Positions 2,737 to 44,817 of a DNA stretch of 44,817 nt are shown here, one piece after another. The number at the start of each line of letters is the position of its first letter. Position 1 is the first letter of the stretch. The stretch spans positions 1-44,817 of the IMG/VR virus record IMGVR_UViG_3300019487_000010; one strand, 5' to 3'. The position numbers and the translations under genes were made by a program. This DNA comes from a virus. The notes under the pieces are model-generated. The model had not been told where the DNA came from. It did no database searches and saw only the letters and a program-made list of their open reading frames with translations.

Positions 2737-4694
2737 CGCTGTTGCACCGTCAGGTCCGTGGCCTGCGTCACCTTGACCTCACCCAGGGTGGAGGTGGGCA
2801 AAACCACCGCGGACTTGTTGGAGACCCACAGCTTCTGCACGGAGCTCCTGGACTCCACTACGGTCTGGATCTGTCCGCCGCTGTCTGGCATGCGTCCGTG
2901 GTGCACCTTCATGAAGCTGAACCCGCCCTCGAGTCGTATCCAGCGACCTGCCGGGGCTGCACCAAACTTCGCTGGCGGCGGCGGCGGGTCAACGTCGGCG
3001 GCGTCGAAGGCCACCTCGGGCTGTAGGGTGCGCTCCTCGCGGATCAGTGAGATCGTCGCGAGGACCTCAGGGCCGGTGGCTCGAAAGAGGTGGTACTGGT
3101 TCTTCTCCCCGGAGAGCACCAGCCTCCGTTCCAGCCCCTCGTTGAACGAGTAGTGCACGGTCTCGTCGTGCCGGATCACTCGGTTGCCACGGAGGGCAAA
3201 CCAGAGCTGGTAGGAGCCCGAGACGGACATCGTGACCGGGTCAACTTGGAAGGACTCGCTCTTGATGGTGACGGGGCCACCGAAGTACGCCGCAGCCTTA
3301 CCGATGAGGGTACTCCGGAGCGCTATCCACTTGGCGGCCAACTGGGCCTCGGTGGCGCTCTTCTTCACGAAGGCAAAGTAGTTCACCGCGCCCATGACCT
3401 CAGCGATCGCGCCAGTCGAGAGCCCGTGTTTCCAGGTTCCAAACCTCGTGAACGTGATCTTCTCGCCAAGGATGACTGAGTCAGCGACCGAGTAGCTCCG
3501 CTCCCGGAACGTGGCCGAGAAGACCAGCTCCGCGCTCTCTCCGTCTCGAGTAAACGAGGGCGGATCTACCTCCTCCCAGGTGACCGCACCGTCCACCGCG
3601 GTCTTAGTGGCGTTCGCCCACGTAACGAAGTCAGCGGTGAACTTATCCTCCGCGTCTTCGCCAGCGTCGTCGGTGTGGTACATGCCCTTGAGAGCGAGGA
3701 GCTTGAGATCCGCGGGGGTCTGCGTGACCTCCACGCTCTCTCGACGCCGAAAGGTGTAGCTGGACGCGGTGATGACCACCGAGAGCCCGCCCGAGATCTC
3801 CCCCGTATCCTCCTGAAGGGTGAGGGTCTCCTCTTCTGGCGTGGCTACGTCCACGTCCCACGTGGTCTCAACCATCGTGAGCAGAGCGTCCCGCACCGCC
3901 TCGAGCTTCTCCGCGTGGTCCGCGTAGACCACCGCACTTATGTCCAGGTGCCCCCTGTAGTCCACGTGCACCACGCGGCGCTGAGCGTTCTTGACGCGTC
4001 CTCGCTGAAGCGTCATTCGCACGGACTCGTTCTTCACGTCTGCCACCCCGGTGGTGGTTCGTACCTGACGGTACGTGGCGGTAAAGGTGAGGGTGTGCTT
4101 TTCACGATCGTGCGTGGCTGGCCCTTCCGAGACCAGCTGCCAGTTCGCCGTCCCGTCCAGCGCTGTGAGCTCCGCCGTGGCGTAGGCGGTGAAGAGTGAG
4201 TTGTACTTCGCTCGCGCAGTCACGCCCGACCCGTACGTGTACTCACCAGTGATGATCGCCTGCTTGAGCCGCCCCGCAGAGAACGTGAGACCGGTGGTGG
4301 CGGTCCTCAGGAACGAGGTGCTGGAGGCGGGCCCCCGCCAGGTGATCGTGAACTCCCACAGGAGGGTCCGGTCACTATCCGCCTCCTGATCCCCGGGCGC
4401 GCGAAGCTCCGTGACAACGTTGCCCACGCTCGTGAGCTGGACTCCCTGGAAGGTCTGCCCCGAGCTCGCTACCACGAGCGTGAAGTTCGCGCTTGGCGGA
4501 GTGAGCGCTGCTACCATAGCGTCCTCGGCGGTCTTGTAGTTCGCCGGGGTGCTACCCTGCAGGATGAACCGGCACCTGATCGAGAAGGTACCGTCGTACT
4601 TGCGGGTGAACGTCTCCGTGCCGTACGGCAAGGTAGCGGCGTTGGCGCCGCCAATCTCATAGCCATTATAAGAGAGGGAAAACGGGTGCGCCAC
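2733..4694 (-). CDS. Large virion/tail structural protein (653 aa), function unknown
   Basis: Long beta-rich ORF in the tail module; 4-nt overlap with the downstream gene. Confidence 0.6.
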   Translation of the reverse strand: MAHPFSLSYNGYEIGGANAATLPYGTETFTRKYDGTFSIRCRFILQGSTPANYKTAEDAMVAALTPPSANFTLVVASSGQTFQGVQLTSVGNVVTELRAPGDQEADSDRTLLWEFTITWRGPASSTSFLRTATTGLTFSAGRLKQAIITGEYTYGSGVTARAKYNSLFTAYATAELTALDGTANWQLVSEGPATHDREKHTLTFTATYRQVRTTTGVADVKNESVRMTLQRGRVKNAQRRVVHVDYRGHLDISAVVYADHAEKLEAVRDALLTMVETTWDVDVATPEEETLTLQEDTGEISGGLSVVITASSYTFRRRESVEVTQTPADLKLLALKGMYHTDDAGEDAEDKFTADFVTWANATKTAVDGAVTWEEVDPPSFTRDGESAELVFSATFRERSYSVADSVILGEKITFTRFGTWKHGLSTGAIAEVMGAVNYFAFVKKSATEAQLAAKWIALRSTLIGKAAAYFGGPVTIKSESFQVDPVTMSVSGSYQLWFALRGNRVIRHDETVHYSFNEGLERRLVLSGEKNQYHLFRATGPEVLATISLIREERTLQPEVAFDAADVDPPPPPAKFGAAPAGRWIRLEGGFSFMKVHHGRMPDSGGQIQTVVESRSSVQKLWVSNKSAVVLPTSTLGEVKVTQATDLTVQQR

Positions 4695-6435: not shown

Positions 6436-6968
6436 CCGAGGTCCACCATGGCTACGATGATCCTCAGGTCTTCCTCGGTGAGCTCAAGCAACGGCCTTGC
6501 AGGCACCGTGAAAGTCATGCCCTGTTGCTTCTTTGAGACCCCGAAGAGCCAGCCTAACTTCCTGAGTCGCTTGTCCTTCTTCATGGCCCGGTACAAAGAG
6601 GAGCGGAACATCGAGGTAAACCTGATCTCCGTCTTGCCGCCCTGGTCATGCAGCGCGGCACGAGCGTAGGGCGACACGATGAGTACCCGGTTCTTCTCCA
6701 ACCGCTCCCGAAAGAAGCTCATCCGCAGGACGCCTGTGTCTATGAGCGCGGGTCTAGGGGTAAATCGCCGAGCCTTCACTGAACCGCCTGAGTTCAAGTC
6801 CCCGATGATCCCCGCGATGTTCGGGCTCTTACGAGCAGGCCACTTGGTCACCCGACCCTGTTGGTCAAACGTGTCTGGAATCACGGAGAGTAGGTAGTCA
6901 GACGCGTCCTCCATGAACTGCGTGGTGGCGAGCTTGGGCACCTGCCTGACCTTGACGCGGAACTTCAC
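6432..6968 (-). CDS. Head-tail joining / tail-completion protein (HK97 gp10 or virion-morphogenesis-like)
   Basis: LIDTGVLRMSF ... SPYARAALHDQGG ... VPARPLLELTEEDL resembles the DTG.L..S / YA...E.G / PaRPfl pattern of this family. Confidence 0.6.
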   Translation of the reverse strand: MKFRVKVRQVPKLATTQFMEDASDYLLSVIPDTFDQQGRVTKWPARKSPNIAGIIGDLNSGGSVKARRFTPRPALIDTGVLRMSFFRERLEKNRVLIVSPYARAALHDQGGKTEIRFTSMFRSSLYRAMKKDKRLRKLGWLFGVSKKQQGMTFTVPARPLLELTEEDLRIIVAMVDLG

Positions 6969-12715: not shown

Positions 12716-15700
12716 TCTTTCGCCTTTACCTCAAGATAGGTGATTCCCTCGTCCTCGTCCTTGCGAACACCGGTGATCTGCATCAGCGATGAGCGATTGA
12801 TGACCTCAGCTTCGTTCTCCCACCCCACGTTGGGCGCTATGGCGTGATGAGCCAGGATCGAACTCTTGGGCAGGGTCCCGGTCAAGACCACGGGAACCTT
12901 ACCAGCCTGTGGTTGCGCGTAGTTGTCCAGGACCACGTCCAAGTCCTCAGACCAAGAGGACGCCGCTCTCTGCGGAACCACTCCCTGATCCAGCATGGCC
13001 TGCAAGTCCGACTCGGTCAACTGCATGCCCCGATGAGCCTTGAGAGGCTTGTCTGGCAAGAGCCGCTGCGTCGCTTCGTACAAAGCTTTGACCCGAGGCG
13101 AGTTCTCGGCGACCTCCTTCAAGAGACCCTCGGGCTTTTGCCCGGACTCATCCTCTCCGCCCGTCGACCAGATGTCTAGAAACTCCCCAGTCTCAGCGTA
13201 GTCATTTCCGATGACCTCTTCCCAACGAGCAGCGGCCCTGGGATGAAGCCTCTTGATGTGCGGATGGTCACTGAACCCACCTCCCTCTCGTGGTGTGGGT
13301 CTTTCTCGAACGGGCTTGGGCGGCTCCGCTGGCTTGGGCGGCTCCGCTGGCTTGGGCGGCTCCGCGGGCTTGGACAACGACCCCTGCTCCAGAGCCTCCC
13401 GAACGGTCTTACTCCGAATCTCTGCCACCTTCCTCAAGGGATCGCTTCTGGTGCTCGCGTCGTGGAGGTCCGCCAACAACTTCGAGGATGAATAGCTGCC
13501 TGTCTCCAACTGAGCCACGTGAGCCTTCAACGAAGCCTTCAGGTGTTGGTATGACCTCGGATGCTTAGCGTGGAGCTTGTCATGGGCCTCCATCAGAACC
13601 TTGCTCACGTACGCCCGAGCCTCTGGCTGCAGTTTCGGCGGCTCTGCCTTCGGCGGCGCTGCCTTCGGCGGCTCTGCCTTCGGCGGCTCTGCCTTCGGCG
13701 GCTCTACCTTCGGCCCCAGCCCCGCGAGGTGCTTTCCGAGCGCGCCACCGGGCGAGTCCCTGCCCGCTACTCCGTGCTTCGGGGAGTGAGCTTCTCCCAC
13801 GAGGTCTTGCACGGAGAGGTCCACCCTCGCCGGCGACCCGAGGTCCACCCCGAGGTCCTCCGCGTGAGCCTTCAGGGCCTTCTGAAGGCCCTCATGCCCA
13901 AGAGCGTGAGCCGCGTTCCACGCGTGCTTCAAGAAGCTCTTGCCCAACGACCCTACCCCGTCTCCCATCATCTTCTGGGTGGCGAGCCAAGCCTTGTAGG
14001 TCGCTGCCTCGGGCCCGTGCCAGTCCCCGAGAGACTTGTGCGAAGCAGCGACCGCCCCGAGCTGTCGGATCTTCTCCGAGCCCTGCCCCTTCGAGATGAA
14101 ACGGCCGTTGACGTCACGCGGGTGCAGGTCTTCGTGCCAGCTGACAAACCGCACAACGTCACTGTGCTCACGGAGCTGACGCTGGTACTCGTCCAGCTCA
14201 TCCGCGTCCTCGTCCTCGTCCTCCCAGTAGGGTTCCAACGCGGGTGGTAGCGGATAGTAGTCGAGGTCCAGCTCACCGTCATCGTCGTAGTCATCGCTCT
14301 CGAGAGCCTCGGGCGAGACCCCCTCGGCGAAGGTGACCGTGTGCTCGTTCTCCCTGAGCTTGCCGGGATCATAGCCGACTGACCGCGCAAACTGTTCGAA
14401 AACGTTGGGGTGGATGTAGCTTGAGCGAGCCACCGCAGGGGTGTTCTGGATCACGCCAGAGACTTGCTTCGAAGCCTCCTTCAAGACCCGCGCCATCAGC
14501 TGACCCTGGGCCTTGTCTCCAGCGGGCAACGGCGGGGGCGGCGGAGTTAGGCGCTTGATCGCCTCGCGGCCCTCGCGGGTCGCGACGACTGTGCGAAAGT
14601 CCTTGGGACGAAACCCGAGTCCCGCGGTCTTCTCCGCCACCGCCCCGCGAACGCCCTGCGAGAACACCCTCTCATTCTTGCCCTTACGAGCGTAATGGGT
14701 GAGCGCCGCTACGAGCGCGGGCTCATGCACGGTTACGTCGTTCAGCTTCCCGCTCTTGCCCACGAACTGCAGCCGCACCCCGCCCTTCTCGGGCTTCACG
14801 TGCTGACCCAACAGGGTGGTCACCCCGAAGTGCCCGTGCGCAGCGACCGAGCCCTCGCTGCCAGGCCGGAGCCCGGTCACGGCGATGAGTGAAGCAGCGG
14901 TGGCAGCCTCGTGCTCCGGCGACCCGAGCGGAAGGGACCGCACCTGGCTCAAGAGCCCTGCTCGAGCCTTCTCGTACTTGGGCTCCAGCTTTTCGATCTT
15001 CACCCACTTCTTGGCCGCGTTGGCTTTGACGGTGGCGGCCGTATAGCTCTGCTGGAGCTTGCCGCTCTTGTCCCGCCAGGAGAGGATCGCCTTCCCGTGC
15101 GGGTCCGTGAGGGAGCCTACCCGCACGTCAGTGACGTCGGCCGCTGGGAGCTTCTTGACGCCGAGCTCCTTTAGCTTAGCCTGGACCGTTGGGTGTAGCT
15201 GGCTACCCGGAGCCGCCCGCTTGCCTCCGGGAGCGCCCAGGACTGGGGCTGGTCCCGGCGCCGCCGCTGGTTGCCCGCCTTTGGGGGAAAACTCGCCGCT
15301 GGCGCGCCCGTGTCCAGCGCTCACGCGAGCGTGTTGAGCCTCGTTCCACGCAAACGAGACCGTGTAGGGCTCAGCCACGGGCGCTCGCAGGTGCAGAGCG
15401 TTCCCGAAGCCTACGTCATCCGCTTGCCACGCCGTTGGCACCTCAGGATCACTCCGGGTCCACCCCTTGACCTCAGCTTCGGCGAGCGTGACGGTCCGCA
15501 GGGTGCAGCGACAGTTGAACCCGAGCGGGGGCGTGTGCCCGAACCACGCGGGATGACCCTTCGGCAGGGCCACGCGGTGGCCAGCCTGGTGGTTGTGCCG
15601 AACGTTTGGGTCGTTGGCGGTGAGAAACTGAAAGCCCCAGAGCTTTGGGTGACACCGCGCCTCGAGCACCTTGCCTCGATTGAACGCCTTTACGACGTTC

Positions 15701-20270: not shown

Positions 20271-20299
20271 ATAATAGCAAGGAAGCTGTCACTCGTCAA
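20271..20299 (-). promoter_or_regulatory. Sigma70-like promoter TTGACG-17 nt-TATTAT with TG extension, giving a (near) leaderless late transcript
   Basis: Minus strand reads TTGACG (20299-20294), a 17-nt spacer ending in TGC, then TATTAT (20276-20271). Only 9 nt separate the -10 from the ATG at 20261. Confidence 0.6.
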
Positions 20300-20303
20300 G
20301 GGC

Positions 20304-20501
20304 TCAGTAAGAGTCCTCCGACCTGAACCGCGCTCCCCGCCGAGGGTTCACCCCGGAGCACCTGGTGACCCACCCCTCATGGTGGAGCTTGTGCGGAAGG
20401 TTGCGGCTCACCCCGCCGAGGTACCAAGGAAGAGGCGGTAGCTTGAGGAGCTTTCGCACGTGGATCATCCTCGCCCTCTCAGCGTGGATGAGCTCCTTCA
20501 T
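20304..20501 (-). CDS. Hypothetical small protein (65 aa)
   Basis: I chose the ATG at 20501, preceded by GGAGGAG. The longer track ORF runs into the palindromic element. GC3 is high. Confidence 0.4.
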   Translation of the reverse strand: MKELIHAERARMIHVRKLLKLPPLPWYLGGVSRNLPHKLHHEGWVTRCSGVNPRRGARFRSEDSY

Positions 20502-20540: not shown

Positions 20541-20662
20541 GGCTCCCCTGTATTCAAACTGCACTTTTGTTCCCCAGCCCCTCCCCGCACCGGCGGGCAC
20601 GCGCCCGCGCCCGCGCAGGAAGCCCCTTTTGCACAAAAGTGCAGTTTGAATACAGGGGAGCC
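20541..20662. repeat. Palindromic element copy 1: 30-bp perfect terminal inverted repeats around a 62-nt GC-rich spacer
   Basis: 20541-20570 GGCTCCCCTGTATTCAAACTGCACTTTTGT is the exact reverse complement of 20633-20662. A second copy lies at 39696-39817. Confidence 0.9.
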
Positions 20663-20666
20663 AGGC

Positions 20667-21479
20667 TCAAGAAAGGCCCGCCCGATCCAACCTTCGAGTG
20701 AGCAACGCGGTAACCCCGGGCTGAGCCTGCACCTCGCTGAGCCAGTCAGCCGTGTTTCCGGCGAACACCACGGCGTGCAGTCCCGCGGCCGCCACGGTGG
20801 CCGCCCAGCCTAGGGCGCTCACCCCCCACCCCGCGCGATGACCCAGCATGTAGCCCGCGAGACCGGGCTCAACTCGTTCAAGCGGAGCGTAGACCGACCG
20901 CAGCCGCTGGCGCTCCTCGAGGAGCTGGAGGTGGAGCCAGCTGTTGCTGTGCGCCAGTCCGGCGTACCCGAGGCGAGCGAGGGCCAGCGCCAGTCGACGT
21001 GGCTCAGCCTCCCGCTTGAGGTGCACCAGGAGCGGGTAGGCGAGCACCTCCTCGAGCAAGGTCACGCCGTGACGCTTGAGCCAGCGAGCGCTCCGCTCGT
21101 GGGTGAGCGGTCCCGACGGCCACACCCGCGGGCTGTGCACCAGGACCGGGACGCTGTCCCGAGAGAGCCGCACATCGACCTCGCTCAGCCACGCGCCCTG
21201 CGCCGCTGCCGCTTCGACCGCGGCGAGGCTGTTCTCCGGGTGCGGGTGCGCTCCGCGCCACGCGATCACCCTCACGGGAGGGTGAGCCGCGTCCCGAGCG
21301 GGGCGTCGAGCGACGCCTCGTCGAGCGGGACCTCGGGGAAAGCTGACACGCTGGTCCTGCGCGCGTTCCTTGTCAGCTTCATCGGTGAGGCGCGCTGCCT
21401 CCTCGGCGTACGTCTCCTGCGTCCACCTTGAGCCGTGGGCGTCCCTACGCCCACCAAGCTTGGCCAGCTTCTTGACCAA
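20667..21479 (-). CDS. Glycerophosphodiester phosphodiesterase (GDPD)-like protein with substituted catalytic motif
   Basis: VIAWRGAHPHPENSLAAVEAAAAQGAWLSEVDVRLSRDSVPVLVHSP aligns with the GDPD signature iaHRG...ENsl.A...A...Ga..iE.Dv.lt.Dg.pVv.HD, but has W for the first His and HS for HD. The TTG start is uncertain. Confidence 0.6.
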   Translation of the reverse strand: MVKKLAKLGGRRDAHGSRWTQETYAEEAARLTDEADKERAQDQRVSFPRGPARRGVARRPARDAAHPPVRVIAWRGAHPHPENSLAAVEAAAAQGAWLSEVDVRLSRDSVPVLVHSPRVWPSGPLTHERSARWLKRHGVTLLEEVLAYPLLVHLKREAEPRRLALALARLGYAGLAHSNSWLHLQLLEERQRLRSVYAPLERVEPGLAGYMLGHRAGWGVSALGWAATVAAAGLHAVVFAGNTADWLSEVQAQPGVTALLTRRLDRAGLS

Positions 21480-23988: not shown

Positions 23989-24003
23989 CTGCTGTCTCCT
24001 GTC

Positions 24004-24066
24004 CGCCTACCTCGTCAGCGCGCGGAGGCGACCCGCGCGGACCCCGCCCGTAGGCGGGGTTTCGGC
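24004..24066 (-). ncRNA. Type II hammerhead ribozyme motif HH-A
   Basis: Minus strand: GCC-GAAA-CCCCGCC-UACG-GGCGGGG-U-C/CGCGCGG-GUCGCCU-CCGCGCG-CUGACGA-GGU-AGGCG. All core nucleotides are present, with a GUC cleavage triplet and a loop I / 3' tail pseudoknot. Confidence 0.8.
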
Positions 24067-24067
24067 T

Positions 24068-24511
<444 letters not shown>

Positions 24512-24534
24512 CTTTCTCGCTCCTGTCTCCGAGG

Positions 24535-24597
24535 AACCTGCCTCGTCAGCGCGCGGAGGTCACCCGCGCGGACCCCACCTGCGGGCGGGGTTTCGGC
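24535..24597 (-). ncRNA. Type II hammerhead ribozyme motif HH-B
   Basis: Minus strand: GCC-GAAA-CCCCGCC-CGCA-GGUGGGG-U-C/CGCGCGG-GUGACCU-CCGCGCG-CUGACGA-GGC-AGGUU. The core is intact, and the differences from HH-A preserve pairing. Confidence 0.8.
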
Positions 24598-24885
24598 TCA
24601 GAAGTTCAGGCAGCCCGACTTGCCGCTGCCGTACCGAACCCGGATCTGCGTGAGCCTGAACCTGAGGAGCTCCCGCTTGGAGGTGTACTGGCCGTTCACA
24701 GCCTGGAAGTCCTTGTTTTCGTCGAAGTCCCTCTGCGCAGCCTCGAGGGAAGGGTACTTTCGGCCGTACGCGGCGCGGAGCGGCTCCAGCCCGAAGAGGC
24801 TGAAGGGGAACCCCGCTAGGCGGCCCTCGTTCGCGCCCTTCGCCTGGTCATCGAAGCTCTCCTGAAACCGCTCGAGGTTGCTCAT
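24598..24885 (-). CDS. Hypothetical protein (95 aa; possibly N-terminally longer, up to 24987)
   Basis: ATG at 24885 preceded by AGGAGAACC. The track ORF extends through a Pro/Ala-rich stretch from a GTG at 24987. Confidence 0.5.
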   Translation of the reverse strand: MSNLERFQESFDDQAKGANEGRLAGFPFSLFGLEPLRAAYGRKYPSLEAAQRDFDENKDFQAVNGQYTSKRELLRFRLTQIRVRYGSGKSGCLNF

Positions 24886-24904
24886 CTGGAGGTTCTCCTG
24901 TGCT

Positions 24905-25012
24905 TTAGACCCGGAGGGCGGCGCGAGCGAGGCGGCGGGCGCGGCGACGGTCGCCGCGGCGGGTGGCGGGGTCGTGGGTGTGACCACGGGGGTCGTGGCC
25001 GTAGAAGCGCAT
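24905..25012 (-). CDS. Possible 35-aa Arg-rich leader ORF directly after HH-C
   Basis: ATG at 25012 preceded by the conserved AAGGAGACAGCAG leader. The peptide is MRFYGHDPRGHTHDPATRRGDRRRARRLARAALRV, ending at TAA 24907-24905. It could equally be an off-frame artefact. Confidence 0.2.
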   Translation of the reverse strand: MRFYGHDPRGHTHDPATRRGDRRRARRLARAALRV

Positions 25013-25033
25013 TTTCTGCTGTCTCCTTCTGTC

Positions 25034-25096
25034 CGCCTGCCTCGTCAGCGCGCGGAGGCGACCCGCGCGGACCCCGCCCGTAGGCGGGGTTTCGGC
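25034..25096 (-). ncRNA. Type II hammerhead ribozyme motif HH-C
   Basis: Identical to HH-A except that stem II position 10.3 is C instead of U, so G:C replaces G:U. Confidence 0.8.
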
Positions 25097-25105
25097 TCTA
25101 CGGCT

Positions 25106-25567: not shown

Positions 25568-26014
25568 GGCTGTGCTTTTTCGAAGAAAGTTCTAAGAGCA
25601 ATCCTGCCACCACTTGTGTCGAGAACTATTTTCTCGGCATGAGCTTTGCCGCACTTTGCCTTTTGAGCCCTCGATGCAAGTGCTTTCCCTCCCCTAACTT
25701 GTGGCCCGGAGCTTATTTGATTTCCCTGGCTTTTCCGCAAGTGCTTACCCCGTAAGCCCTTGCAACAGGGGTCCTAAGTGCTTATAGCATAAGCAGTTAG
25801 GAAGCGCAATAGGAGCGCTCTGGGCCGCACGGTTTGCCCGGTAAGGGTTGCCCACTGCTTGCCACCAGCATGCGGCCCAGAGCGCTCCTGGCTATGCCAG
25901 CGAGCAGCCCAGCTTGCCACCAGCCCCGCGCTTGCTGCGCGGGCTTGCCCGGCAAGTGGCCCACCGTTTGCAGATCCCGAGCTGGCCTGGATTTTGCTTC
26001 CCTGGACGAATCGC
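25568..26014. promoter_or_regulatory. ~450-bp non-coding hub with reduced GC, GCAAGTGC-type repeats, TTGCC repeats and two large palindromes (candidate origin / regulatory region)
   Basis: No ORF here has phage-like GC3. My hand count over 25561-25800 gives about 50% GC. Repeats are listed in the findings. Confidence 0.5.
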
Positions 26015-31151: not shown

Positions 31152-31744
31152 AGCTGTTGAATCCTCCGCTGATGTTTTTCCGTCAGAAAATGAGGAGCGG
31201 TTAGATAGAGCCCCTCCATCGAGATGAGCTCAGGCGCTCGATCCTCCATCTCGAGCCACTCATACCAGAGTGCGTGCCACGCTTGACGCTGAGCGAGCAC
31301 CCGCGTCTCAGTTGCCCACGACAACTGACGGTGTCTCCGCGCCACCGTCGGTGTCAGCACCTGAGAGGTTTCCCTGGTGATCCAGGAGCGCCTCTCCCTC
31401 CGCTCCTGCACCACCTCCACGGGCTCTCTCAGCATGATCTCGGTCACGTCTCCAAGAGACCGCATGAATTCGAGAGCCTTCGGGTGGTGAAAGCCTGGTG
31501 GACGCACATAGAGCCACTTGGCAGCCGTCACGACAGGTGCGTAGAACGTCGTCTCCCGCTCCCACCCCGGAAGGAACAGGAGATGCCCTTCCGCGGAGAG
31601 GACTCGCCCGAGGAACCCGTGCCCGGTCTCTGACACGACGAGGTTGGTCAAAAACCACGCGGTGGGAGCCACCGCACGCCTCACGTTGAGCTCGAGGGTG
31701 CTCTTGCCCGACCCAGGTGGCCCGCTAACCACGACGTTACGCAT
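31148..31744 (-). CDS. P-loop NTPase / nucleotide kinase-like protein
   Basis: Walker A VVVSGPPGSGKSTL at the N-terminus; ~198 aa. Confidence 0.55.
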   Translation of the reverse strand: MRNVVVSGPPGSGKSTLELNVRRAVAPTAWFLTNLVVSETGHGFLGRVLSAEGHLLFLPGWERETTFYAPVVTAAKWLYVRPPGFHHPKALEFMRSLGDVTEIMLREPVEVVQERRERRSWITRETSQVLTPTVARRHRQLSWATETRVLAQRQAWHALWYEWLEMEDRAPELISMEGLYLTAPHFLTEKHQRRIQQL

Positions 31745-39461: not shown

Positions 39462-39470
39462 ATTATACCA
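39462..39470 (-). promoter_or_regulatory. Extended -10 promoter TGGTATAAT (with TGTACA 16 nt upstream) for the replication operon
   Basis: Minus strand reads TGTACAAACGGCTTGTTCCTGGTATAAT, about 70 nt upstream of the SNF2 start. Confidence 0.55.
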
Positions 39471-39502
39471 GGAACAAGCCGTTTGTACATAGCCTAGATT
39501 TT

Positions 39503-39691
39503 CTACGGCAAAACCTCCACGAACAGGTTCACCGTCTGCCCGGGCTGAAGCCCCCAGTCGCTCGGGAACAAGAGCGCCCCGACCTCGCGGAGCGCCCCTC
39601 GCTCGTCTCGCTCCGCGAACGTCACCTGAAGGGCTCCTGGCTTCGGAGCCATCTGAACTCCGAACACGACCACCTTCACGCTCTGGTTCAT
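39503..39691 (-). CDS. Hypothetical small protein (62 aa)
   Basis: I chose the ATG at 39691. Its SD (AGGGGAG) lies inside the 3' arm of the palindromic element. Confidence 0.4.
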   Translation of the reverse strand: MNQSVKVVVFGVQMAPKPGALQVTFAERDERGALREVGALLFPSDWGLQPGQTVNLFVEVLP

Positions 39692-39695
39692 GGGC

Positions 39696-39817
39696 GGCTC
39701 CCCTGTATTCAAACTGCACAATTTGAAAAGTGGCTATGCCTGCGCGGGCGCGGGCGCGTGCCCGCCGGTGCGGGGCTCCCCTTTTGCACAAAAGTGCAGT
39801 TTGAATACAGGGGAGCC
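39696..39817. repeat. Palindromic element copy 2: 24-bp perfect terminal inverted repeats around a 74-nt spacer
   Basis: 39696-39719 is the exact reverse complement of 39794-39817. The arms are identical to copy 1, and the 37-nt core is inverted relative to copy 1. Confidence 0.9.
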
Positions 39818-39829
39818 TCCCAGAGCTTT

Positions 39830-40177
39830 TCAGGCCATCAAGAGTCGCAGAGCGACCTTGATCCCCTCTTCTCCGAGCGTCAAGAACGCCTCGATCACCC
39901 GATTGGCAGCGGCTTCCCGCTCCAAACGGGCCTTCCAGGCCTCTCGGGAGTTGGCCTTGCGCAACCTTCTCCGCTCCTCGAAGCCGAGACCGGAGAACGC
40001 GAGGGTGATTCGCGTCGCCTCCACCCCGTTCTTCCACCCCGCGAGGGCATCCTTCACCGCCTTCTGGCCCAGGAGGAGAACGTCGGGGGCGACCTCCTCC
40101 AACTTCTTCACGGCCAAAGTACCAAGCTCCCGCTCCGGGCCCTCCGGGAACTTCTCGCGCAAGTCTTGCAGATCCAC
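39830..40177 (-). CDS. Hypothetical helical protein (115 aa)
   Basis: Last ORF of the late block. Confidence 0.5.
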   Translation of the reverse strand: MDLQDLREKFPEGPERELGTLAVKKLEEVAPDVLLLGQKAVKDALAGWKNGVEATRITLAFSGLGFEERRRLRKANSREAWKARLEREAAANRVIEAFLTLGEEGIKVALRLLMA

Positions 40178-42380: not shown

Positions 42381-44817
42381 GCGCTGGGCCCTCGGATGAC
42401 GGTTAGCTCCGCGCGCTCGACGTAGGACTCGTCGCCAACGTTGCCGGGCTGCACGCGCAAGAACACGTCGATGTCGCCCGTGGTGTCAGGAAAGACGCCG
42501 CTGGTCGCCTCCACGTCGTAGTAGGGCACGCCGTTGAGCGTGGCCTCCCCGTGCAGGGCCCTGTAATGGGTCTGCACCACACTCACCACGTCGATGGTCC
42601 GCACCTCGAACTCGACCTCAACCTCGATTCGCCCGGGCTCGTCGCTCTCCCCGTAAGCGGGCAGGTTGACCACCACAGCGGCCGTCGTGCCGACGCAGAC
42701 CTTCCAGGTGGCGATGTTCGTCACCGCCCCGACGCTGGGCCGGTACGTCGTCAGGCGCGCCCGTAGCCGGAAGCGCGTCCCGACCTCGATGACCTCCTCC
42801 GGAACGGTGAGGGTCTCCACCGTGGTCAGCGCCACGGTGCCGGTTAGCACGTCGGACTCCTCGGTCACCTCCAGGACCTGGAGGAGATCGGGCACGCCGG
42901 TGATCGCCCCACCAGTGATCGCAACGGCGTCCGCGTCCTGCGTCGCTATCGAGCCCATCCCCAATGTGTTCCGCTGCGCGGCGGCGTTCGCGTCGTCGAG
43001 GAGCGCCTTGCCGGCGGCGGTCAGGCCGTAGGTCGCCGCGGTGCCAGCGCCGGTGAACTGGATGCCCTTGTCGGCTGCGCTCGTGAGGCCGGCGATCGCC
43101 GTCAACTCGGCGTCGAGCGGCTGGTAGCCGGCCGCGACGTGCTCCTCGGTGGCGAGCGTCCCGTCAGCGTCGGGCGCCTGCAGGTCCCGCTCGTCGGTCA
43201 CGTTGTCAGCCAAGAACCGCGCCCACAAGCCGTCCCCGACCCGGCTCGCCCCGAAGGCGATGCGCAGCGCACCGACGGTCAGCGGCACGGTGCCGGCGTT
43301 GGCCCCGTCGACAGCCTCCAGCCCTGGCGGGTCGAAGACCAGGTCGGGGACGAAGCCAGACCGGACACCCGCGTTGCTCGGGCCCAGCGCGAGGAGCCCG
43401 TCGGCGCCCAGGCGAGCGCGCTCGGTCGCGGTGCCAGCCGCGTCATGTGACTTGAAGGTCAAGGCCCTGTCACTCTCGAGCCCCCATGACCACCCCTCCT
43501 TCACCCCGCCCGTGCCTAGCTCCGGGCACCCTGCTGCGTATCGCACCCAAGACTTCAACGCAAGGAGGTACGCGGAGTCTGGGGTCACGCCTCGACGAGA
43601 GAAGCAGTCCCCGTCGAAGTCACGCGCGGTAATCACGCCAGGAGCGAGCACGATACCGCCCGGCCCCGCGTTGTAGGGACGCAGGCGATCAGCGTTGAGG
43701 CCAAGCTTCGGCCCGCGTTCTTGACCGTAGGTGAAGAGCCGAAGCACCACCGGAGCGTACTCGAGGTACCGCCGCGCTGCGTGCTTGGCACGACGATCAT
43801 ACCGTCCGTCGAAGACCTTGCCATAGAGCCCTTGCACCGGAAGTGCCCGCAGGGCGAGGCCAGGCAGGTGAAGCTCATGGGTGCTTCCCACCCAACCGTG
43901 GTGCTCATCTGCGCCATCGATGGCCTCTTCGCCCTCACGACGGATTCGCTCAATCTCCTCCGACACCGGGTCAGGAACCACTGGCGGTACGCGAGGCGCT
44001 GGCGGACGGGGGCGCAACTTACGCGGAACCCGCACTGGCTCCAGGGGAGGCAGCCGCGGGTCATCTGGCACCGGATCTGTGGGCCCCAGAGGAACGGGGT
44101 TCTGGGGCGTGAAGGGCTCTTCCCCGTCCCCGGGCAGACCCCCTCCGTCGCCGGGTCCGTCGCCGGGTCCGCCGCCGGGCTCCTCAGGTTCATCATGACA
44201 GAGCGGGCTCGAGGTGCACCAAGCCCACTCTTCACGGGCAAGGTTGTACCCAAAGTGGACCGCGGTAGGCTCAGAGAAGTCCTGCCCCGCCCGGTAGTCA
44301 GCGACGGACATGCGACCCTGGAACCCGTCTCGCACCCAGTCCACCTGAAGGTTCAAGCAGAGGTTGCGAAGCGGTTCACCGTTCGCGTTGGCTCCTAGAT
44401 CCACACTGGGATTACCGAACCCGGACGTGAACGGTCCTTTCGCCTCGCTGTTGAAGCAGAGGACGTTGCCGCCTGGCCCCCGCCCGCTGGTGGCAGCACG
44501 ATAATCCATCGGCAGTTGAGTCCAGAGCCCGATCACCCCGTGGTGCCCGCCGAAGCGGCGCTCTGCCCCGTTCAACGCGATGACCGTCGCTACCCCAGCG
44601 AGGGGACCCGAAGCGGTCTTCTCCGAGAGGGGCCTCGTCACGAGAGCGCTCTCAAGGCCTGCTCGTTGAGAGCGCTGCGGACTCACGGCGCTTACTCGCC
44701 AGCCCTGAACTTGCGTAGAGAAGCTCGCCTCTCCATGACGGGGGGGTCGCTCATCGCTGTGCAGTCGGTTGTCCCAGCCGGGCATGAACAGCCCCTCTTG
44801 GCTGAGTTCATCCGTCC
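42377..44817 (-). CDS. Tail fibre protein, main part (continues upstream across the junction into 655..124)
   Basis: GYQPLDAELTAIAGLTSAADKGIQFTGAGTAATYGLTAAGKALLDDANAAAQRNTLGMGSIATQ is the widespread phage tail-fibre motif. There is a Pro/Gly-rich hinge. The frame is open to the window end. Confidence 0.8.
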   Translation of the reverse strand, partial: TDELSQEGLFMPGWDNRLHSDERPPRHGEASFSTQVQGWRVSAVSPQRSQRAGLESALVTRPLSEKTASGPLAGVATVIALNGAERRFGGHHGVIGLWTQLPMDYRAATSGRGPGGNVLCFNSEAKGPFTSGFGNPSVDLGANANGEPLRNLCLNLQVDWVRDGFQGRMSVADYRAGQDFSEPTAVHFGYNLAREEWAWCTSSPLCHDEPEEPGGGPGDGPGDGGGLPGDGEEPFTPQNPVPLGPTDPVPDDPRLPPLEPVRVPRKLRPRPPAPRVPPVVPDPVSEEIERIRREGEEAIDGADEHHGWVGSTHELHLPGLALRALPVQGLYGKVFDGRYDRRAKHAARRYLEYAPVVLRLFTYGQERGPKLGLNADRLRPYNAGPGGIVLAPGVITARDFDGDCFSRRGVTPDSAYLLALKSWVRYAAGCPELGTGGVKEGWSWGLESDRALTFKSHDAAGTATERARLGADGLLALGPSNAGVRSGFVPDLVFDPPGLEAVDGANAGTVPLTVGALRIAFGASRVGDGLWARFLADNVTDERDLQAPDADGTLATEEHVAAGYQPLDAELTAIAGLTSAADKGIQFTGAGTAATYGLTAAGKALLDDANAAAQRNTLGMGSIATQDADAVAITGGAITGVPDLLQVLEVTEESDVLTGTVALTTVETLTVPEEVIEVGTRFRLRARLTTYRPSVGAVTNIATWKVCVGTTAAVVVNLPAYGESDEPGRIEVEVEFEVRTIDVVSVVQTHYRALHGEATLNGVPYYDVEATSGVFPDTTGDIDVFLRVQPGNVGDESYVERAELTVIRGPSA
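44695..44817. repeat. Second copy of the 123-bp terminal duplication
   Basis: Identical to 1-123. Confidence 0.95.

Follow-up and report, generated by a model that had tools for sequence, protein, structure and literature searches.

The T7 R-sites and the lambda N leader are intergenic stem-loops, located between co-directional genes of phage polycistronic mRNAs, that are processed by RNase III. After cleavage the upstream message keeps a hairpin that protects its 3' end, and a downstream ribosome-binding site can become accessible; the T7 R-sites are about 60 nt long, carry a characteristic internal loop and occur many times per genome. In Neisseria, the Correia elements (CREE/nemis) are intergenic sequences of ~100–155 bp with ~26-bp terminal inverted repeats and a directional core, which are found in both orientations and are co-transcribed with their neighbours (PMC2649163). 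Within the mRNA, their 26-bp inverted repeats form hairpins that are targets of RNase III, and binding or cutting of this stem by the enzyme alters the expression of the neighbouring gene (PMC2649163). A phage-specific repeat that supplies the ribosome-binding site has been described in Cluster K mycobacteriophages and Cluster EF Microbacterium phages as SAS/ESAS, with motifs of 13 bp and 17 bp that occur 10–19 times per genome, all before start codons (PMC3203893, PMC7302621). In ESAS, to which, like SAS, no function has been assigned, the SAS is preceded by a pair of inverted repeats with a spacer, and half of the SAS sites have such 17-bp inverted repeats upstream (PMC3203893, PMC7302621). 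Finally, the flip/flop telomeres of poxviruses and parvoviruses and the hairpin-loop inversions of plastids combine one and the same stem with an asymmetric interior in two reverse-complement states (PMC8956199, PMC6824564). These states come about when hairpins are replicated or resolved at genome ends, or when the entire loop flanked by the stems is inverted.

Here we compare these systems with two copies of a 122-nt near-palindrome in the window, meaning the whole 44,817-nt stretch that was analysed. The window is a complete phage-like genome in a circular assembly, with every credible gene on the minus strand. It begins and ends with an exact 123-nt repeat (1–123 = 44695–44817) and, given that a 990-aa tail-fibre gene crosses the window ends in the ENA contig, this repeat is the overlap of a circular assembly, not a physical terminal repeat. 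Read along the minus strand, the tail and other late genes end with a 115-aa gene and are followed by copy 2, ORF62 and an early promoter-like site. The early/middle block then runs through an SNF2 helicase, a primase-helicase, DNA polymerase A, three hammerhead ribozymes, a ligase and a GDPD gene, after which come copy 1, ORF65, a late promoter-like site, a 189-aa protein, a GpA-type large terminase, the portal and the head/tail genes. The two copies occupy exactly the two junctions (late-to-early and early-to-late) of this two-block, one-strand genome, 4–12 nt past the last stop of a block and ~200 nt before the next promoter-like site (Table 1).

A script comparison bore out the sequence observations from which this analysis started. 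Both elements are 122 nt long and share the outer 24 nt on each side (39696–39719 and 39794–39817 equal 20541–20564 and 20639–20662), each arm being the reverse complement of its partner; the 40-nt transcription-proximal modules are identical and the cores are exact reverse complements of each other. The perfect inverted arms reach 24 nt in copy 2 and 30 nt in copy 1 and enclose an interior of 62–74 nt, while the 37-nt cores, compared end to end in one direction, are identical at only 10/37 positions. Inside the 40-nt module (39778–39817) lies a small palindrome, TGCAC-N4-GTGCA, and the 14-bp dyad TGCACAAAAGTGCA is confined, within the window, to the two elements. Allowing up to three mismatches, the 16-mer arm core matched the window at the four arm positions only (0.03 expected; 0/100 shuffles reached four matches) and the 37-mer core occurred just twice (0 expected). 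Chance is excluded as the origin of the paired repeats. Copy 2 also contains a third copy of the 8-mer GGGGAGCC at 39774–39781, a coincidence that is only mildly notable because this 8-mer occurs 11 times in the window.

Table 1. Positions of the two elements, their parts and the flanking genes and promoter-like sites in the window.
Feature	Position	Strand	Remarks
Last late-block gene (115 aa)	39830..40177	−	stop 12 nt before copy 2
Copy 2	39696..39817	−	122-nt near-palindrome in the interval between the last late gene and ORF62
Copy 2, transcription-proximal 40-nt module	39778..39817	−	24-nt arm + TTTTGTGCAAAAGGGG; identical to 20623–20662
Copy 2, core	39739..39775	−	37 nt, GC-rich; exact reverse complement of 20583–20619
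Copy 2, decayed inner module	39720..39738	−	~75% like the reverse complement of the intact module; 2-nt deletion
Copy 2, 3' arm (mRNA strand)	39696..39719	−	holds GGGGAG (39703–39698), the SD of ORF62
ORF62 (62-codon ORFan)	39503..39691	−	directly 3' of copy 2; GC3 0.83
Early promoter-like site	39462..39489	−	TGTACA-16-TATAAT + TG; upstream of the SNF2 helicase gene (start 39393)
Last early/middle-block gene (202 aa, GDPD)	20667..21275	−	stop 4 nt before copy 1
Copy 1	20541..20662	−	122-nt near-palindrome with 30-bp perfect arms in the interval between the last early/middle gene (GDPD) and ORF65
Copy 1, core	20583..20619	+	bracketed by the 7-nt direct repeat AGCCCCT (20576–20582, 20621–20627)
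ORF65 (65 codons, without annotation)	20304..20501	−	40 nt past copy 1; GC3 0.82
Late promoter-like site	20271..20299	−	TTGACG-17-TATTAT + TG (TGcTATTAT); ATG 20261, 9 nt after the −10 hexamer

The earlier note had described a flipped 37-nt cassette inside otherwise co-oriented repeats. The underlying sequence facts hold, but the co-orientation was overstated, since arms that are each other's reverse complement look alike either way and carry no orientation. Indeed, ungapped comparison of the whole elements gave an identity of 93/122 in direct and 101/122 in inverted orientation, and gapped global alignment favoured inversion more clearly (107/124 inverted versus 93/122 direct). The core occupies positions 43–79 of 122 in copy 1 and 44–80 in copy 2, and reverse-complementing a 122-nt element thus places it exactly as in the other copy. 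Counted by hand on the alignments, the inner modules (16–19 nt) match at ~21/34 positions in direct and ~21/35 in inverted orientation. Co-orientation is supported solely by the 16 nt CCCCTTTTGCACAAAA, that is, by the transcription-proximal inner module (TTTTGTGCAAAAGGGG on the mRNA strand), which agrees between the copies at 16/16 positions. In copy 1, the distal (3') inner module matches the reverse complement of the proximal module in its last 6 nt only and has the appearance of replacement, not decay.

Judged from these alignments, the two copies are best read as one element in opposite whole-element orientation, so that a palindromic unit inserting either way is, among the origins proposed at the outset, the one now favoured. 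The ancestral unit was probably a near-perfect palindrome, composed of the 40-nt module, the asymmetric 37-nt core and the reverse complement of the module, in which the core alone would have recorded the orientation. Such a unit would have been installed twice, in opposite orientations, and the distal inner module would then have decayed in each copy. We infer that two opposite installations plus erosion of the distal module make the most economical history; no cassette devoid of its own flanking inverted repeats has to be inverted. What this history needs in addition is selection, gene conversion or a one-in-two coincidence to account for a transcription-proximal module that stayed intact in both copies, and the seemingly replaced distal module of copy 1 likewise counts against it. 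As a general caution, identical arms around a flipped core are, within palindromes, the look of a whole-element inversion and not by themselves a switch.

Could the core instead have been the mobile part? A REP-like 37-nt cassette that the two copies, already palindromes, each acquired separately and in either orientation would fit the 100% identity of the core between copies whose immediate flanks differ, as well as the direct repeat AGCCCCT around the copy 1 core. We consider such nested insertion very unlikely. The copy 2 core has no comparable direct repeat, and the core sits centred and in register in both copies, which is automatic under whole-element inversion but a coincidence under independent insertions. 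Moreover, the core was found nowhere else in the window or in IMG/VR, with only noise-level GC-rich matches in plasmids and phages, and the fold of the core alone is no more stable than that of shuffled sequence (z 0.1 and −1.2). The latter result also bears on the suggestion that structure rather than sequence was selected. The predicted stability of the core RNA depends on orientation (−26.6 kcal/mol for the mRNA strand of copy 1 and −17.2 kcal/mol for that of copy 2), and with an insignificant fold whose stability shifts upon flipping, the core lends no support to selection on structure.

Both elements are genuine and did not arise from assembly. In the ENA contig ERZ27251177 (44,820 bp, 99.95% identical) both are present and oriented as in the window, while Logan contigs (SRR7811987, k=31 assembly) end inside each element and bear the matching halves (the end of L006 and the starts of L008 and L010), as is expected of a two-copy repeat. 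The orientation of copy 2 agrees among the window, the ENA contig and the Logan fragment; the core orientation of copy 1 is legible in the window and the ENA contig only. Over ~20 kb, nine SNPs separate the window from the ENA/Logan assemblies, and the only one within an element, at 39731, lies in the decayed inner module of copy 2 (A versus G, mRNA strand). It is drawn unpaired in the minimum-free-energy fold of copy 2 (G·A versus G·G) and therefore appears structurally neutral on this by-eye reading.

These data also bear on the proposal that the core, or the whole interior, flips via the inverted arms and thereby alters the expression of adjacent genes. Perfect inverted arms of 24–30 bp could support recombination and both states are represented, one per copy. 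Nonetheless, an active invertible switch strikes us as extremely improbable, given the single orientation seen at each locus in the assemblies compared. We found no match to recombinase (including invertase), transposase, integrase or protelomerase families in the 42 scanned window proteins (of ~44 called genes), and no promoter lies within the element to be switched. In addition, the core is not bounded by inverted repeats of its own, the nearest being the arms, so that arm-to-arm recombination would have flipped the inner modules as well; yet the 16 nt that separate arm from core are not inverted between the copies.

Folded as RNA, the elements reach −75.8 and −90.7 kcal/mol (z −9.5 and −12.5 against shuffled sequence), and minus-strand RNA including the flanks likewise folds significantly (z −9.3 and −7.8), as do the DNA hairpins (z −9.5 and −10.7). 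The coding-strand RNA is predicted to form perfect lower stems of 24 bp in copy 2 and 30 bp in copy 1, both of which exceed the at least 20 bp (about two turns) of uninterrupted double-stranded RNA on which RNase III acts. The earlier note had further proposed that the stem sequesters the Shine-Dalgarno sequence of the next gene. Its description of the copy 2 context on the minus strand is correct. By our count, the upstream stop ends at 39830, 12 nt from the element, and GGGGAG is located 6 nt before the ATG at 39691; in the minimum-free-energy structure this GGGGAG is predicted to be paired within the stem. Sequestration does not extend to copy 1, where ORF65 has its own SD outside the stem. 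In copy 2, the 5' arm can also pair with the third GGGGAGCC in a local hairpin (−23.4 kcal/mol, z −4.7) that would compete with the SD-masking stem.

Taken together, we tentatively favour, as a possibility that falls somewhat short of an even call, that the element is a lineage-specific palindromic repeat, present in both orientations, which acts at the mRNA level, either as a hairpin at operon ends or as a processing site of the RNase III type. We infer transcription through the elements, termination or processing there, and masking of the SD. From the gene orientation, the elements would be transcribed at the tail of each block, where a perfect 24–30-bp stem past the last stop could serve as a 3'-end barrier or weak terminator, and as the substrate of a double-strand-specific RNase of the RNase III type, the presence of which is assumed. 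On a circular or concatemeric template that would otherwise be transcribed round and round, the hairpins would uncouple the late from the early messages, and they may gate or limit the expression of the small gene behind each copy. Being upstream of the next promoter, each small gene is reachable by read-through only, and since the 3' arm of copy 2 holds the ribosome-binding site of ORF62, translation of this gene would need the stem to be cleaved or opened. That the genome encodes three hammerhead ribozymes means that it already relies on RNA cleavage between genes. By analogy, the Correia elements, the RNase III sites of T7 and lambda, and the terminator at the junction of a relative (see below) would support this role in mRNA.

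Several observations count against the mRNA role. Relatives do without the element (see below), masking of the SD is confined to copy 2, and neither hairpin is followed by a U-tract on the coding strand, the sequences behind them being GCCCAUGAAC and UCCCCGGAAA, so that classical intrinsic termination is not predicted. Canonical terminators were found at neither junction; those on the minus strand lie only deep in the blocks (31656–31678 and 6720–6732). Translational coupling by terminating ribosomes was rejected as well, because a ribosome footprint at stop-to-stem distances of 12 and 4 nt would open no more than 2 bp of the stem.

Sigma-70-type matches of 10/12 plus TG in 44.8 kb are limited to the two promoter-like sites, the promoter type being, like RNase III, an assumption. 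The late ATG follows its −10 hexamer so closely that the late mRNA would be leaderless or nearly so; unlike the late site, the early one has a 69-nt leader with a small hairpin of its own and an AGGAG SD. Inside the elements, no promoter-like site scored 9/12 or better, and a sigma-54-like promoter, CTGCAC-N5-TGCA, was discarded on account of its GG/GC spacing, which is wrong by eye. As for the genes behind the hairpins, ORF62 and ORF65 resemble the real genes of the phage in codon-position GC (GC3 0.82–0.83), without a match in Pfam (E up to 10), PHROGs or PDB sequences, and no homologue of ORF62 was found in two very large protein sets. For ORF62, the AF2 model has a pLDDT of 71 and its best Foldseek match, Pur-alpha, is not significant (E 0.085, TM <0.5). 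An AbrB-like ORF62 and an HTH/excisionase-like ORF65, both initial guesses, were dropped, the former finding no backing in Pfam, PHROGs, PDB, the protein searches or AF2/Foldseek and the latter none in Pfam, PHROGs or PDB sequences.

A more elaborate version of the mRNA role would make each junction part of a timing circuit, in which the hairpin acts as a leaky terminator or RNase-gated translational lock that meters a small protein regulating the promoter next downstream. ORF65 might then be a late activator, comparable to lambda Q, which sits before PR', and ORF62 might shut off early transcription. The unit being palindromic, one module would work either way and could move with the adjacent ORFan between phage genomes. 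We regard such a circuit as doubtful, decidedly on the unlikely side.

Alternatively, the elements might work as DNA, either with the arms or TGCAC-N4-GTGCA as operators for a DNA-binding protein of phage or host, possibly ORF62 or ORF65, or as a cruciform for replication initiation or packaging. This would make sense of four exactly conserved arm positions, of the dyad TGCACAAAAGTGCA that is restricted to the elements and of the significant DNA hairpins, and it would fit a small gene without assigned function behind each copy and the placement of copy 1 upstream of a terminase module with a lambda GpA-type TerL. However, the elements lie ~200 nt upstream of the promoters instead of overlapping them, and no DNA-binding domain was detected in ORF62 or ORF65, with insignificant matches for the ORF62 model. 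The cumulative GC skew does not turn at either site, on which ground a replication origin was rejected, and a cos or pac site was rejected because of the second copy 19 kb away, as two packaging sites at this distance would split the genome in two. A site acting at the DNA level is, in our judgement, unlikely.

The remaining alternative holds that the element is a selfish, MITE-like palindrome without adaptive role. Two permissive intergenic sites of this phage lineage would have taken it up, in either orientation, and its location at the junctions would only show where a gene-dense genome tolerates insertion. Several features speak for it. Long terminal inverted repeats surround a short, non-coding and directional core, as in the Correia elements and as expected of a MITE; the copies are in opposite orientations; the tightly packed genome leaves few available sites; and the element is absent at the same junctions of all relatives examined (≤40% protein identity). 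Against it, neither copy has a target-site duplication (flanks GGGGA/AGGCT for copy 1 and TGGGC/TCCCA for copy 2), no transposase was found among the 42 phage proteins scanned, and the dispersed copies number just two, both in the window, the arm 19-mer having elsewhere only chance, non-palindromic matches and none in IMG/VR. Blocks of 24–40 nt that are perfectly kept beside fully diverged ones are, furthermore, not what neutral decay would leave. We rate a mere passenger as rather unlikely, with the proviso that this reading and action on mRNA are not exclusive of each other.

Comparison with related genomes, as suggested in the earlier note, did not reveal further copies. For helicase and terminase we found no relatives above 40% identity, which makes the window phage isolated; a close helicase relative was not found in IMG/VR, and the window DNA gave no match in the phage collection. 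Among cultured phages, the primase is closest to those of Microbacterium, Arthrobacter and Gordonia, at ~30% identity, a weak hint at an actinobacterial-type host that the high GC content and the leaderless start would fit. In syntenic 45-kb relatives, a tail-side gene is followed by a consensus TTGACA-17-TATAAT and then the helicase, without palindrome or small ORF. Long inverted repeats were absent from the junctions of two helicase relatives (L014, L015) and two terminase relatives (L016, L017); the Logan contigs L014 and L015 end just upstream of the helicase gene, with no palindrome at those ends. In the TerL relative L016, the equivalent early-to-late junction (3560–3735) carries a canonical terminator, GTCCG...CGGAC + T7. 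L016 is lower in GC and has an AT-rich early-to-late junction with the terminator directly before a terS-like gene, a layout that recalls the PR'-tR' antitermination arrangement of lambda. As the relatives do without it, the element is dispensable for this genome type and could be a passenger.

Searches with the element itself were similarly barren. The exact 19–20-mer arm, the arm-gap-arm pattern and the 37-mer core are all absent from IMG/VR, and blastn of the element against phage and plasmid collections returned GC-rich noise only (E ≥0.03). Across 185,579 species genomes and JGI metagenomes, the arm gave four matches, all single, non-palindromic and in unrelated contexts (Chitinophagaceae, Castellaniella and one metagenome contig), which we read as chance. 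In Rfam, no family threshold was reached, the matches to generic long hairpins (miRNA precursors, antisense RNA) scoring 12–26 bits against thresholds of 52–200. A hairpin in the core that resembles a type I-E CRISPR repeat (CCCCGC-N4-GCGGG) matched no CRISPR-DR family.

The window holds additional features of note. On the minus strand, the early/middle block contains three type II hammerhead ribozymes (RF02276) at 24001–24067, 24532–24598 and 25031–25097, spaced by ~500 nt, with scores of 45–49 bits (gathering score 37). Between them lie two small ORFs, 24068–24511 (very acidic, GC3 0.98) and 24598–24987, and this arrangement suggests self-cleavage of the polycistronic mRNA; GTC/CTC-rich repeats at 24067–24221 encode an acidic low-complexity protein. 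Past the DNA polymerase gene, a non-coding gap of ~450 nt (25568–26014, minus strand) contains recurring GGTGGCAAGC/GGGCAA motifs and a perfect 19-bp inverted repeat (25811–25829/25871–25889) around a 41-nt loop. The gap may encode a structured non-coding RNA, although its fold z is only −2.7. In-frame tandem repeats of 18 nt and 15 nt are present at 13313–13373 and 13619–13714 in the gene for a 1157-aa minor head/pilot-like protein.

If the mRNA role that we tentatively favour is right, this phage would use a single reusable hairpin, indifferent to orientation, where conventional terminators might be expected to mark its two operon boundaries, with an unannotated small gene behind each, and would thereby provide a compact case of RNA-level punctuation combined with gated read-through. 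The practical value is modest, as this concerns one lineage with two copies and no relatives that carry the element.

How, then, does the phage element compare with known systems? It shares with rho-independent terminators the position past the last gene of a unit, where the relative L016 has such a terminator at the same junction, but the phage hairpins lack a U-tract and their stem is several times longer, which sets them apart from this class. An invertible DNA switch of the Hin/Gin/Cin or Fim kind differs in having a recombinase and inverted repeats that exactly bound the invertible segment, neither of which was found here for the core. Nor does the element qualify as a protelomerase target, its centre falling in the asymmetric core, the corresponding protein family being absent from the scanned proteins and the sites being two, not one. 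Flip/flop hairpins show the same combination of constant stem and reversed interior, whereas the phage elements are internal, belong to a circular assembly and have unflipped inner modules beside the arms. Like the SAS (GGGATAGGAGCCC), the phage element (GGGGAGCC) supplies a ribosome-binding site; in contrast to SAS/ESAS, however, it has arms of 24–30 bp and two copies, of which copy 2 alone adjoins a start codon, so that the element falls outside that family. Compared with the T7 R-sites, the phage elements are longer (122 nt), have a perfect lower stem of 24–30 bp and are only two in number, and their processing is predicted. The Correia elements come with a TA target duplication, hundreds of chromosomal copies, promoters generated by their ends and an IHF site, while the phage element has two copies, no target duplication, no promoter-like site and no sequence similarity to anything searched. 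The phage element, which belongs to no named family, would accordingly be nearest in its working to Correia/ERIC-type MITE palindromes or to the RNase III and terminator hairpins of phages.
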